DNA of 63,359 nt, filler included, from Collodictyon triciliatum (GCA_043381765.1; 4 parts of 4 records of this genome joined end to end with filler, not necessarily neighbours in it); one strand, 5' to 3'. Shown: positions 8,261 to 16,687, counted from the whole stretch's first letter. Translations and numbers: made by a program. Notes: generated by a model from the sequence alone, not told the origin.

Positions 8261-11200
8261 TCAAACCTCCGTGTTTAATTTTTGTGGGTGCATTTCATTG
8301 CCACCGCTGAGACGAACATGCTTGACTCTTGGAATGATTCTCATGCAGTACAGAACAGTGAATAGGCTAGTGAACATGAAAGAATGAAGAAGAATAAGAA
8401 AAATAAGTATGTCAATACGGTTGAGAAGTGGATTGCGATTAGGTGATTACATCTCCTCACTCTCTACTCAAGGCAAATGTAACATATATTACCTAGAGAC
8501 TTCCAGGGCAACATAGATTGTATGCAGGATTTCGAAGTAGTTGAATAAAAGGTCATGGTTTACTGCATTAATAATCGATACGATAGATGTAAAGAACAAA
8601 AAGACTGACGACGAAATTTGAAGGCGCCGAACCTAGATACCCCAGCGAAAGAAAAGAAATAGATGTAGATTGGTCGCATGTTTTGGTTTGTATGATAAAT
8701 TTATGCACAATATTTCCATTTATCAGAACAAATTTTATACATCGCACTTGAAAATAGTGGAAAGTAGAAGAAAGTGTTTTGTATAGATAATCATGGAGTG
8801 GGGGATTAAGATAACATAACATACTTTTTTCATGATTGGATTATTTTCCACTTTGACATACTCGAAATGCGAAATCAGCCTTCTGCCAAGTATAACATAC
8901 AGAACAGCCATCACCATGCTATATTCGCCAAATGAAAATTCAAAAACCATCATTTTCTTCTCTGAAACAAAAATAATATCACAAAACACAAATGAAAAAT
9001 TCTTAAGTTATGATTATTGCTATTGTTCGGTGTCGTTTGCTCCCTGCCTGATAGATGACAAAAATGTTGTGCCATAGATGATGGCAAAGTCTCTCGTTGA
9101 GGCCGACTGTAGTGACAGTATCCACGTCACAGCCTCCCCCAGCAGGACAAAAATAAGTCCGCCAAAGTATGCCTTTTGGAACTGGCCAAGGTACTTCGAC
9201 TTGATTGAGTTCGAAGTTATTGCATCAAACCTGTATAGAGATCATTGATTGCGCATTAAAAAACATTCTTACCAAATATTTACAAAGGAATATGGCAACT
9301 ATTGCAAAGAATACATGAAAACGATGACTGGAGACTCACCACACAAAAATCATTAGGGAATATGCCACGTAAATAAAAAAGAATGGAAGGGTCAGACAAA
9401 TAATTATGGTATCTATCTGCATTCTTTCTATGTTTCCACTGACTCCGCTAAGATAGTAGATAAGACGGCCTATTCAATTAAATGAATTTTTCAAAAGAAA
9501 ACTAATTTCATATAGCATATGAATGATTTGTTAGTTCCCTGTTTATTTTTTCACTTTTGCGTTCGTTTTTGTTTTTGTTTTGCTTTTCACTTTCAAGACA
9601 TGACTTACAAATAACAAGACCGAGTGCGCTCAAGTGAAGAATAAGCGCGGTTGGATTCCGCTTCTTGTAGTTATCAAACTGCTCTTGGCACACAAAGAGC
9701 AGCTGGTACAAGATGAACACCAGGAAGATGCCGTAGATAACCGTGTATAGGATAAAGGCTGGTATATGCTTTGCATACCATGATTTTCCGCATCCTTTTT
9801 CTCCCGGAATGGGCAGCGAATAGATGGCGAAGTCAGACTTAATGAATACACCGACATTTAGTGCCACCAATCCATATACTGATCGAATAGGCCGATGAAT
9901 GATATTACAGCTGCTAATGCATGTTTTCAACACAACAATAATATCAAGCCTTTCACAAACCAAAGTTCTTTGCGTATATCGACTGTCAACATAAATGTGT
10001 GAATTCATACCATTTCCTTGCTCGCACAGACAACGCCACATGTATTATTTGCACACGACCACATGCTATCCGTACGGTTGACCCCAGAAGAAGTCCAATA
10101 ACTCCATTTGGGCACCCACGATGTGCAGATGGGATTCTCAAGGACACATGGGTTTGGTTTATAATCCCCCTTGTATATAAATGTGTCTTGGGGTGGGTTG
10201 TCGCCTAATAAAGTCAAAATCATAGCGTGTTACTCTACTTTTCGAGTTAAAAATCATTCATTTTAATACTTGCATTTCGACTATTTCATCACTAACACTA
10301 GGATTATTGACGTAATGGCGAAGGAAATGAACAATAAAATGGAAAAGCCAATAAGATGGAAGATAACCAGGCGGAGGCACGTAATCATCCTTTTTCGGAA
10401 ATGTTATTCTTATTCCTCGTTCAGAGCGGGCATTAGCTTTCACTGACCCATTCATGTGCACCAAGGCGAGGCTTACTACAGGCGAGACAACAGATCTACG
10501 AAGTACATAAATCTAGGTGAGTTAAAACGGCTGTATGAAATAAACGAGTTCTCTTACGACAAGCTCTTCTATTCGCTTCTCATATGATAGATTTAGATGC
10601 TAATTCTAATGTGCAACTTTGTGCCATGTTTTCTTCTGCAACATACCCATTCATTGGTTTGTTTTTTTGTGGCTCCTGAGCATGAACATCATAAGATGTC
10701 ATTATTATACGAATGTAATAGTTCCTGTCATCCTTAAGCAAGTCTCTAGTGTTACAATCTATTGTGATTCCATTGAACAGATTCACAATGTCCATCTGTG
10801 TTGTCCTATTTACTAAGGAAATAAAAATTAAACTTCAGAACTGCATAGCTACCCAACAGTGGTAGGTAATTATTACGAAATGAAGCAATGAAAATGCTAC
10901 CAATACCTCTTTCCGTGTACATTTCTATATCATTTGTTTTGACCCTAACATTTTTGACGCCATCCACTCTCATCAATTCCAAGGAAATAATTTCGGGTAT
11001 TGTCGTATTACATGTTGTTCCATTTACCCATAGTTTTTCTTGCGACAGATTGGAATAAGCAAAAAATGTGTCCTGAATACGAAAACTAGGTTTTAATAAT
11101 ACCCAAAAAAAAAAACAAGAAAGAAGCATATATCACCAAGCGTCACATATTATACTTCCTCCAATGAATGCAGATGTGCTCAGAAGATTTACCTCTGCAG

Positions 11201-14200: not shown

Positions 14201-16687
14201 GCTGAATGTTAGTTCTGCAATTTGAAAAGAAAAAACCAAAGAAAAAACCAAATTAACCTGATATTTGGTTGTAACTAGCATCTAAGATTTGTAGCGTACC
14301 CCAATCACCACTGGGTAAGGCCCCTATTCGCACATGTGATGTTTTTTATCTAATCATATATATGTTCTGGTCATGACATTTCGATGATGCAATTTTACCT
14401 GTGAATAAATTCCCTGAAAGAATGACAACATCGGCGATAAATGGGAACATCGTTTCAATTTCGCCTAGTTATGTGTAGCTATTAAAAATACATTATGTCT
14501 ATTATTACAATATTAAAATTAACAAGTGCGAGGTGGGGCATTGAGCACTCAGGTACAAACCTTTAAATATGTTGAAAGATAAATCTAGAAAATTGAGATA
14601 AGGGAAATGCATTTGTTCTGGCGCCCCTATTAAATTTCATGTATACACTTTAAAATAGAATAATTATGTACAATTCCATATGTTCCATTAAAGAGACAGT
14701 CACAAAACAACTACCCGACAGCTGACAATGACTGGCCCATAAAAAACCAAGCATTGGGGAGTTAATTGAAGAGAGATTGCCTGAAATGTTACGAAAAATA
14801 ACAAACAAAAATTATAGTATTTAATTCTCTGGAAAAAATAGCATTGTTAAGACGTCAGTAAATGAAAATTTTAACTTACCTGTAATCTGATTGTAACTAA
14901 AATCTATCCATACGGCTATTGGAAATTCAAGGACTGGTACGTCTCCTTTGAAAACAAAGAACTTTAAGGGATGGGTAGAAATGGCATTAAACCAGTTTTT
15001 TTTTTTTTTGCATTTTTTGCATTTTTTGCATTTTTTGCATTTTTTATACATACCACTTAAAAAATTTTCTGACACCGCATATACGCGTATGGATGGTGCA
15101 TAGGACTTCAAAGTGCCTATGGACGTCAACATCACCAATTAAACAAATAATATAAAGAATCCGTTTTTATATTATGAGAAATCATATCGTTTATGCAATA
15201 CCTGTTAATTGATTGTATTCTAAGATAACATCTTGAATGTCGATAGATTCAATCGAGGGCATGCTACCTACATTGTTAACATAGTCATGCTTAAGAAATG
15301 CAACGTAAGCCAGGTTATTTCTCTTGAAACCCCCCAATATTCCTCATGTGTAAAGTTATTTCAGTATTCTCTCTAAAACAGCAAAAGAATAGACTTCTTG
15401 AATAATCACCTGAGAATAGATTGTCACTAAGGTCAAGATATTTTAAGTTGGGACAGACGAACTTTGGTAGGACGCCTATTTTCGTTTTCAAAAATAAGTT
15501 GGAAAACCAAATAATCGATGATTGAAGAAAAACATGCTGATTTAATTCTCGATTTAATTCAAATGTTAGTTAGAGCTTACCATCCAGGCCATTAGATTGA
15601 AGCTTTAAAGTTGAAATGGGACATGAAAAGGAGATTGGAAGCGTTCCTATCATGTTAAGCTGGTCGTTATGTCTTCAAACTAACTAACAGACAAAGAAAC
15701 GAAGAAATAAAAAAAACAACAAAAAAACAACAAAAAAACAACAAAAAAACAATAAAAAACAATAAAAAACAATAAAAAACAATAAAAAACAACAAAAAAC
15801 AACAAAAAACAACAAAAAAACAACAAAAAAACAACAAAAAACAAAAAAAATAAACAACAAATAAACAACAAAAAACAAAAAGATCAAATAAATGAATTAA
15901 AAGGACAGATACTTTGTTGTCTAAAAATATTTGTAGAGCATGGGAATGACTGATAAAATAGTGATAATTCTCAAAAACTCATGACAAACCAGAAAGGGAG
16001 TTAAAACTCAGGTCCAGCAAATCTAGACTGACTATGGTGCTCATAAGGTCTGAAAACGTTGGCTCCAGTGTGCCAACCAGTTTATTTGAGCGAAGATTCA
16101 AGCCGATGATGACACACTGGAGAGAAAACACTCAAAAGACTGGAAATACCAAGACTACACGTTCAAAAAAAAAGGGAAAGGAAATGATTCATGTTAGCTC
16201 TTACATCACACTCAGGATCATTTGCGCAGCCTGAGTCGCATTCAACCCCGTACCAAGTGCAATAGCAGGTATTCGGGTTGGCCCAGTTGGTTGAGATGTT
16301 CCAATCACGCCCTCCCCACGCATCGAACAGCGAACCAAGTACCATTCCGACCGACTTGCGCCGTCCAAGTCTCTGCTCTCCTTGTAGCAAGTCCAGTGGG
16401 CTCGTGAGACGCACATGTTTTCCGTTCACGTCGCTGTCAGGTCGCACACTTTTTGATCGATTTATACTATATGAGTTGCGGTTGTATTCTTAAGAGGGGC
16501 AATGAATGGCCGCGTGTCGAGGGACATAATCGGTAGCCCATTTTCATCAGCAAACAGGCGAATACGTTTTGTCGCTGGGCTCATCTGGCGCAGTCTCGTG
16601 GAGCACAGCGTTCGGAATCAAAGCAGAAACAAGAAGCAGCCAGAGGCAGAGACACGTTTTTGAGTGCAACTTAGTTGGTTGAGTCAT
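8261..16687 (-). CDS. Large multi-exon receptor: signal peptide, plant-type LRR N-cap, about 15 short LRRs, FG-GAP-like beta-propeller, GAIN/GPS-like region, 7 transmembrane helices
   Basis: MTQPTKLHSKTCLCLWLLLVSALIPNA signal; LFDAWGGRDWNISTNW...CYCTWYGVEC cap; LxxLDLSxNxFSG repeats; FGASL..YLFVS..GRIYIY type blades in the 12.3-13.4 kb exon; CTSW..W..G..VVCASKEM/SDFAIY; seven hydrophobic segments at 8.3-9.8 kb; TGA at 8263-8261. Exons at 11.7-12.2 kb are not fully resolved. Confidence 0.8.

Follow-up and report, generated by a model that had tools for sequence, protein, structure and literature searches.

A candidate adhesion-GPCR-like receptor with a leucine-rich-repeat and propeller ectodomain in the protist Collodictyon triciliatum

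Results

A 63,359-nucleotide stretch of DNA from Collodictyon triciliatum (GCA_043381765.1), composed of four parts of four records joined end to end with filler and hereafter called the window, was found to carry on its minus strand a gene that is predicted to encode a 1559-residue cell-surface receptor built on the plan of the adhesion G-protein-coupled receptors (GPCRs). The probability that this is one gene for one such receptor was put at roughly 0.6. From its N-terminus the predicted protein contains a signal peptide, a cap, 15 leucine-rich repeats (LRRs), a seven-bladed propeller, a linker, a GAIN-like region that ends in a GPS-like motif, seven transmembrane (TM) helices and a short tail. 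The same order had been proposed in a sequence-only reading of this DNA, and the elements it described were recovered at the positions it gave and could be joined in a single open spliced frame. The receptor is rated a variant of the adhesion-GPCR plan outside the Holozoa, with an LRR and FG-GAP_2 ectodomain that its only known relatives lack.

The gene model

The coding sequence runs from 16687 to 8261 on the minus strand and was delimited from a curated splice model of 31 exons, with 1559 codons, a stop codon and no internal stops. The region is AT-rich, with a G+C fraction (GC) of 0.31–0.37 per 2-kb window, and contains only one long open reading frame (ORF), of 399 codons. The exons have a GC of 0.417 and the introns 0.298. 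The introns are 64–343 nucleotides long, 28 being GT-AG and two GC-AG, and retention of any of the 30 would introduce a stop or a frameshift. A custom dynamic-programming splice search, scored on codon usage and on donor and acceptor sites, gave a first pass that was used as a guide only, as small exons were gained or lost when the intron penalty was varied. The final exons were curated by hand, and those of the 3' half were placed with the help of a homologue from Diphylleia rotans, P0007, described below.

Two junctions were corrected from this homologue (slashes mark the splice points). At the GPS-like motif the donor 10011/GTATGA (phase 0) was joined to the acceptor ..attaag/9837 to give the product ..NNTCGVVCASKEM/SDFAIYSLPIPGEKGCGKSW.., the counterpart of which in P0007 is ..VKCTSKKL/SDFSIFLEPVDAKDGCSDSW... 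A 22-nucleotide micro-exon at 9982-9961 was dropped, as the homologue alignment favours the direct splice from 10011 to 9837. The junction of exons 28 and 29 uses a GC donor, ..ATC AG/GCAGGG, and the acceptor ..tatag/C at 8918. The two GC-AG introns lie at 13431-13543 (donor GCAACT) and 8919-9047 (donor GCAGGG) on the minus strand, the second being backed by the homologue; each donor may be genuine or may reflect a GT-to-GC base error in a draft assembly.

Relatives in Diphylleia rotans

The 89-residue exon that encodes TM1 and TM2 (9610-9876, minus strand) was compared with 1.84 billion representative proteins, three of which matched at E ≤ 0.001. Two are true relatives, P0005 (P004516; E 2.3e-6) and P0006 (P009440; E 7e-5), both ORFs of the EukProt transcriptome of Diphylleia rotans, a CRuMs protist. 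The cluster of P0005 contains a longer isoform of the same Trinity gene, P0007 (EP00002_P004517; 1166 residues), which carries on one transcript a signal peptide, FG-GAP_2 blades (97.8 bits), a Ser-rich linker, a region of about 320 residues, a GPS-like motif, seven helices and a tail. Its signal peptide stands directly before the propeller and LRRs are absent.

Residues 935-1540 of the model are colinear with P0007 from the start of the GAIN-like region to TM7 (blastp, 30% identity over 614 columns, 264 bits), and residues 1030-1391 align with P0006 (30% identity over 363 columns). When P0007 was searched against the window with tblastn, independently of the splice model, seven colinear minus-strand exons were obtained and nothing comparable was found elsewhere in the window. 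The recovery of two genuine relatives from 1.84 billion proteins, together with these seven exons, places the gene beyond chance. Altogether twelve exons are colinear with this distant homologue at 30% identity with no frameshift, and the motifs VVSPVVS, SDF.I, GC..W and SLMIFVW are conserved with the Diphylleia relatives. P0005 ends in ..VIR and a stop at the splice codon of exons 28 and 29, where P0007 continues ..VIS.., and it looks like an intron-retaining isoform. Since P0005 ends exactly where the window needs this splice, the two species share the position of this intron, at a Ser codon within TM5.

The third match, P0004 (six stretches, E 2.2e-11), is a repeat protein of 423 residues that has no TM helices; its similarity is confined to a short CGKSWYAKH-like stretch, and it was not retained. 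The stretch GCGKSWYAKH, at 9760-9800 (minus strand) between the GPS-like strand and TM1, resembles a segment ..CGRDWYARHF.. that is repeated more than six times in this unrelated protein, and the repetition inflated its score. The Cys and Trp of this stretch are kept in all three receptor relatives.

Searches for additional relatives extended the family no further. Residues 560-1051 of P0005, compared with proteins of near length, returned only P0005 itself among 8000 scored candidates, an alignment-profile search in which exon fragments had shrunk the profile to a few columns found no further homologues, and scans of metagenomes found none. By these sequence searches the Diphylleia rotans ORFs are the only relatives found, and the LRR addition is seen only in this gene. 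The earlier statement that no described protein combines these modules is therefore kept for the LRR addition, which is unique here, and given up for the core of propeller, GAIN-like region and seven helices, which is present in the unannotated Diphylleia ORFs.

The GAIN-like region and the GPS-like motif

Exons 20-26 (the 5' part of the latter; 9808..11708, minus strand) encode a region of about 332 residues up to the GPS-like site, assigned from its colinearity with P0007 (residues 548-869) and from the structural matches of the Diphylleia homologue. It spans 322-332 residues, and PMC3321182 gives about 320 for the GAIN domain. The segment SVVSPVVSL..IRITFP corresponds to exon 24. The GPS-like motif, C..W......W...G....C....M/SDFAIYSLPI (..CASKEM/SDFAIY.., the slash here marking the site equivalent to GPS cleavage), spans the junction of exons 25 and 26 (9808..10148, minus strand). 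A pattern composed post hoc, C-xx-W..W-xxx-G..C-xxxx-[LMF]/[STC]-x-F-[AS]-[IVL], was matched by all three proteins and by none of 20000 shuffles of the model. The same stretch of P0006 (residues 248-291) was matched by the Pfam GPS profile at positions 1-44 of 45 (E 0.0066, 17.4 bits against a cut-off of 22.5). A search with the language-model features of the Atlas, using residues 545-885 of P0007, returned GPS clusters in 17 of 30 matches, the best at 0.91.

The fold was modelled on P0006, a paralogue fragment, and the folding alignments left out exon rows 22, 23, 28, 29 and 31, which had been misplaced by MAFFT. In the AlphaFold model (mean pLDDT 57.7) five helices are followed by strands, and these by the TM helices. 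A Foldseek comparison of this model with the PDB gave adhesion-GPCR GAIN structures in seven of the top ten rows, with a probability of 0.97-1.0 for the best. The GAIN rows comprised BAI3 4dlo (E 3.4e-4 and 6.9e-4), CELSR1 (9.4e-4), BAI2, CD97, GPR110, latrophilin-3 and latrophilin-1 (rank 10). Individually weak, the Pfam GPS match of P0006, the Atlas and Foldseek results, the span and the pattern agree with one another, suggesting that the GPS-bearing region proposed from sequence was correctly named and that the middle of the receptor is quite probably homologous to GAIN.

The cleavage triad H-L/T/S/C is absent. The -2 residue is E in the window, K in P0007 and T in P0006 rather than His, with M, L or F at -1 and S at +1; the Cys of the 'GC' element and the second Cys of CxC are both missing. 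In the latrophilin structure these two cysteines presumably pair with each other, and one disulfide would have been lost as a unit. Because the -2 His is replaced and one of the two canonical GPS disulfides is gone, little or no self-cleavage is expected from the sequence, as in uncleaved adhesion GPCRs.

The seven-helix bundle and the tail

Exons 26-31 (8342..9765, minus strand) encode the TM helices, as judged from hydropathy and from colinearity with P0007. The hydropathy profile of the model contains six peaks of at least 1.6 and a weaker seventh helix, and seven helices are present in the AlphaFold model of P0007 residues 717-1166 (mean pLDDT 50.3; 50-83 within the bundle), in agreement with the seven segments counted earlier. 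Clusters of Lys and Arg follow TM1, TM3 and TM5 and occur in the tail, which fits an N-out/C-in arrangement. In the model the fold would be GPCR-like, with seven helices, this topology and a bundle that can be superposed on GPCRs.

No family could be assigned to the bundle by profile. With the E limit of hmmscan raised to 10, there was still no match to the Pfam seven-transmembrane families, including 7tm_2 (PF00002), PF06454 and PF27607, for P0007, its residues 717-1166 or P0006, and none to 7tm_2 for the window exons. The Atlas feature search matched the bundle to clusters of THH1_TOM1-3 (PF06454), GPR137_N and PRRT3 at 0.86-0.89, below the 0.9 line of the tool, with 159-181 of 256 features shared. 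The proposal that the bundle is nearer to TOM1, THH1 and GPR137 than to secretin-type receptors was not borne out by these values and by the missing PF06454 match; kinship with this group is a language-model lead.

The spliced sequence ends in a cytosolic tail of 26 residues followed by the stop codon (8261..8341, minus strand). Its last residues, ..NTEV (8264-8275, minus strand), resemble a class I PDZ-binding tail such as the QTEV at the end of BAI adhesion GPCRs; the Diphylleia relative ends ..TIDP, and the resemblance may be chance.

The ectodomain

Exon 1 (16566..16687, minus strand) begins with an ATG that is preceded by an in-frame TAG, and encodes a signal-peptide-like N-terminus with a Kyte-Doolittle hydropathy of 2.14 over residues 11-29. 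The cap W..STNW..CYCTWYGVEC lies on exon 2 (16205..16433, minus strand; the acceptor may be 16433 or 16466, both in frame) and resembles LRRNT_2; the Pfam match covers positions 22-41 of the 41-position profile and scores 18.9 bits (E 0.0018), short of the cut-off of 20.7. The 15 LRRs are plain in the sequence as tandem units of 21-23 residues ending N-x-[LIF]-[ST]-G and were assigned to exons 3-16 (13544..16116, minus strand) from the list of units and the exon table. Exon 3 contains two LRRs (Pfam LRR_1 E 0.006, 16.9 bits against 20.6), and exons 4-16 one each, with a length of 63-66 nucleotides and phase 1-1 throughout, so that any one of them could be skipped without a change of frame. Microsatellite arrays occur within the introns of the gene, (TTTTTTG)n in intron 3 and (AAAAATGC)n in intron 7.

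Exon 17 (1101 nucleotides, 13430-12330, minus strand) encodes seven FG-type blades, recognised by eye and by regular expression, and is read as an FG-GAP_2-type beta-propeller (Pfam FG-GAP_2 E 0.0016, 19 bits against a cut-off of 23). Among 3731 database candidates, restricted to longer proteins, three matched this exon (P0001-P0003); all are remote and all contain PF14312 (E 2.5e-17 to 2.5e-6). The 3' end at 12330 was set by the frame and the blade pattern, and alternative donors lie at about 12285 and 12240. The Ser/Thr/Pro-rich linker was assigned to exons 18-19 (11830..12209, minus strand), which are provisional: the splice search chose them at two of three penalties, and their position matches the Ser-rich linker of P0007. 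The sequence-only reading had seen a possible break between two genes at 11.7-12.2 kb. Indirect evidence against such a break comes from P0007, in which a single ORF extends from the propeller through the linker and the GAIN-like region to the last of the seven helices; the doubt persists to the extent that exons 18-19 are provisional here.

Surroundings of the gene

A convergent gene at 4874-7830 (plus strand) is O-GlcNAc-transferase-like, two ORF pieces matching Pfam Glyco_transf_41 (E 1e-14 and 3.5e-11), and ends a few hundred bases from the stop codon of the receptor. At 24887-27694 (plus strand) an ORF of 935 uninterrupted codons contains 12 WD40 repeats that are nearly identical (Pfam WD40 E 1.8e-120), with pentapeptide-like repeats (ANLSNSILDGANFTGANLDG..) upstream of them; an open frame of this length is unusual for an intron-rich region. 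The right end of the window is richer in GC (0.42-0.49) and has ORFs for a nitroreductase (59272-60486, minus strand, E 5.7e-8), a DUF202 protein (51414-52079, plus strand, E 9.6e-15) and a RING finger (55371-56264, minus strand, E 2e-6). Dense microsatellites or low-complexity arrays occur at 15690-15900, 14990-15045, 1700-1900, 27600-28200, 30300-31100 and 35550-36950. Gaps of N are found at about 23.7, 30.8, 39.9-40.4, 44.8-45.6 and 55.2 kb, and several such gaps point to a draft assembly.

Discussion

If the gene is read as one receptor, the ectodomain of LRRNT-like cap, 15 LRRs and seven-bladed FG-GAP_2 propeller would bind a ligand or a surface. It would stand on the flexible Ser/Thr-rich linker, followed by the GAIN-like domain of about 330 residues. 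The last strand of this domain, SDFAIYSLPI, would correspond to the Stachel, or tethered-agonist, strand and lies about 24 residues before the first helix. Binding to the ectodomain, or a pull on it, could then reach the helix bundle through the GAIN-like domain, by way of the last strand that is conserved in it, and give rise to an intracellular signal, and this would occur through a conformational change rather than through shedding.

Several observations weigh against this reading. The gene model was predicted from genomic sequence, with no RNA run listed for 8200-16800, and it requires two GC-AG introns as well as exons 18 and 19, for which homologue support is missing. The Diphylleia relatives are without LRRs, so that the LRR block may form a unit of its own or an alternative one. 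All Pfam matches of the gene's own pieces fell below the curated cut-offs; the GPS profile did not match the GPS exon of the window (exon 25), nor P0007 at E up to 10. The AlphaFold models are poor (the mean pLDDT values given above) and were built on about three real sequences, with a pLDDT below 50 in the beta part of the GAIN-like region, and the Foldseek alignments to GAIN structures have TM-scores of 0.16-0.23 and an rmsd of 13-19. Compared by sequence with PDB chains, neither P0007 nor P0006 found a match, and the alignment query returned a single chance row. For the model of the seven-helix bundle Foldseek returned nothing below E 0.1, the weak top rows being class B1 receptors, TSHR, CD97 and WLS.

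A first alternative concerns the junction between LRRs and propeller. A secreted LRR protein could be encoded by exons 1-16, read through the GC donor to end in ..NPFTGNFLFICYFSI and a stop, and could stand beside, or alternate with, a Diphylleia-like receptor of propeller, GAIN-like region and seven helices. P0007, with its signal peptide directly before the propeller, is such a protein; exon 16, for want of a GT donor, has to use GCAACT, and the phase 1-1 LRR exons can all be skipped in frame. Exon 17, however, opens just after a stop and in phase 1; its first Met comes only at about residue 215, it encodes no signal peptide, and no other start exon was seen. Exons 16 and 17 are just 113 nucleotides apart, and with exon 16 skipped a splice from the GT donor of exon 15 to exon 17 also keeps the frame. 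From the phase, the missing start and signal peptide and the 113-nucleotide gap we infer the junction, and with it a single transcript for the LRR block and the remainder; division into two units is considered improbable. Still less credence is given to a decaying or unexpressed copy whose frame is open merely through the choice of splice sites. The two GC donors, the unsupported exons 18-19 and the lack of a listed RNA run would be compatible with decay, but 1559 open codons, twelve exons colinear with the homologue without a frameshift and the four conserved motifs would not be expected of it.

The other alternatives accept one protein and differ in what its membrane-proximal parts are. The middle region could be a lineage-specific stalk in which the Cys and Trp pattern arose by chance, giving an LRR-propeller receptor on a seven-helix anchor with no tethered-agonist logic. 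The missing GPS match of P0007 and the window exon, the loss of the catalytic His, of one Cys of CxC and of the 'GC' Cys, and the low-confidence models with their low TM-scores all suit a stalk. Independent tools nevertheless converge on GAIN or GPS, the motif stands at the canonical distance before TM1, the order of helices then strands and the size of about 320 residues fit GAIN, and the two lost cysteines are those taken above, from the latrophilin structure, to be partners of one disulfide; the stalk is accordingly held to be unlikely, slightly less so than two separate units. Somewhat better placed, though still doubtful, is the possibility that the bundle belongs to an endomembrane protein of the THH1, TOM1 or GPR137 type, with the N-terminal part in the lumen of a vacuole or lysosome or serving as a scaffold, which would be compatible with a GAIN domain in the middle region. 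It draws on the Atlas matches to THH1_TOM1-3, GPR137_N and PRRT3 and on the absence of a 7tm_2 match. Every one of those Atlas scores lies below the 0.9 line, however, PF06454 found no match in hmmscan, and the weak top Foldseek rows were class B1 receptors and CD97 (E 0.1-0.3). GPR137 is moreover described in PMC12716839 as having no extra domains.

The reading as one receptor on the adhesion-GPCR plan can also be compared with known systems. Like the adhesion GPCRs (class B2, including the latrophilins, BAI, CELSR, CD97 and GPR126), the predicted protein has a large modular ectodomain, with LRRs as in some members, and a GAIN-type region of about 320 residues that ends C..W..W..C...[LMF]/[ST]xFA[IVL] some 20-25 residues before TM1, followed by seven helices and a short tail; GAIN domains of this class were also what the structure searches with the homologue models returned. 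It differs from them in having no Pfam 7tm_2 match, in a GPS without the -2 His, the second CxC Cys and the 'GC' Cys, in an identity of 8-13% to the solved chains in the structure alignments, and in its hosts, which are not holozoan. The Diphylleia rotans ORFs share 30% identity from the start of the GAIN-like region through TM7, the FG-GAP_2 propeller, the Ser-rich linker, the GPS-like motif, the seven helices and the TM5 intron, but are shorter (1166 residues), uncharacterised and without LRR cap or LRRs. Integrin alpha chains and FG-GAP_2 proteins likewise have a seven-bladed FG-GAP-type propeller, whereas the family here is FG-GAP_2 (PF14312) rather than the integrin FG-GAP, and the thigh and calf domains and the single-pass anchor are all absent.

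Polycystin-1 (PKD1) bears N-terminal LRRs and has 11 helices with a TRP-like channel part. In PKD1-like proteins a GAIN domain also precedes a membrane part that is not of class B, and PMC3321182 describes GAIN as common to adhesion GPCRs and PKD proteins; the receptor proposed here differs in its seven helices and its GPCR-like model. THH1, TOM1, TOM3 and GPR137 (PF06454, PF27607) provide the nearest language-model feature clusters of the bundle, but lack an HMM (hidden Markov model) match to it and have short N-termini with no extra domains according to PMC12716839.

According to that 2025 survey, GAIN and a seven-helix bundle were first linked in stem holozoans, the adhesion-type receptors of non-holozoans have no structured ectodomains, and a weak link joins a new family, RSF, to THH1/TOM1/TOM3. 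PMC10445921 describes amoebozoan family-2 receptors with no GAIN, and PMC3971589 places adhesion-type seven-helix receptors in some non-holozoans. In the literature searched on GAIN with THH1 or GPR137, on GAIN with FG-GAP and seven helices in protists, on Diphylleia GPCRs and on PF06454/DUF1084, the present architecture was not found described, although supplementary domain tables of these papers could hold a case, and no paper on the Diphylleia ORFs was found.

A more specific proposal, which we favour less than not, is that a true GAIN domain has been fused, in protists outside the Holozoa, to a seven-helix bundle from outside the secretin/adhesion class. The GAIN and seven-helix module would then be far older than stem Holozoa, or would have arisen a second time on another seven-helix scaffold, possibly one like THH1, TOM1 or GPR137, and here would have been extended by the shuffling of one-LRR exons. 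On these data the receptor may or may not have been 'independently assembled', as the sequence-only reading had it, and that interpretation as a whole is partly supported.

The layout of one LRR per exon, all in phase 1, is a clean example of the growth of an ectodomain by exon duplication. If the reading as one receptor is true, the occurrence of a GAIN-like domain directly ahead of seven helices, both here and in a CRuMs protist, would either conflict with the stem-holozoan origin of the combination or broaden it, and the large ectodomain of LRRs and propeller would contrast with the ectodomain-poor receptors of other non-holozoans. The receptor would then also be a test case for a tethered-strand mechanism that operates without cleavage and on a helix bundle that is not of class B.

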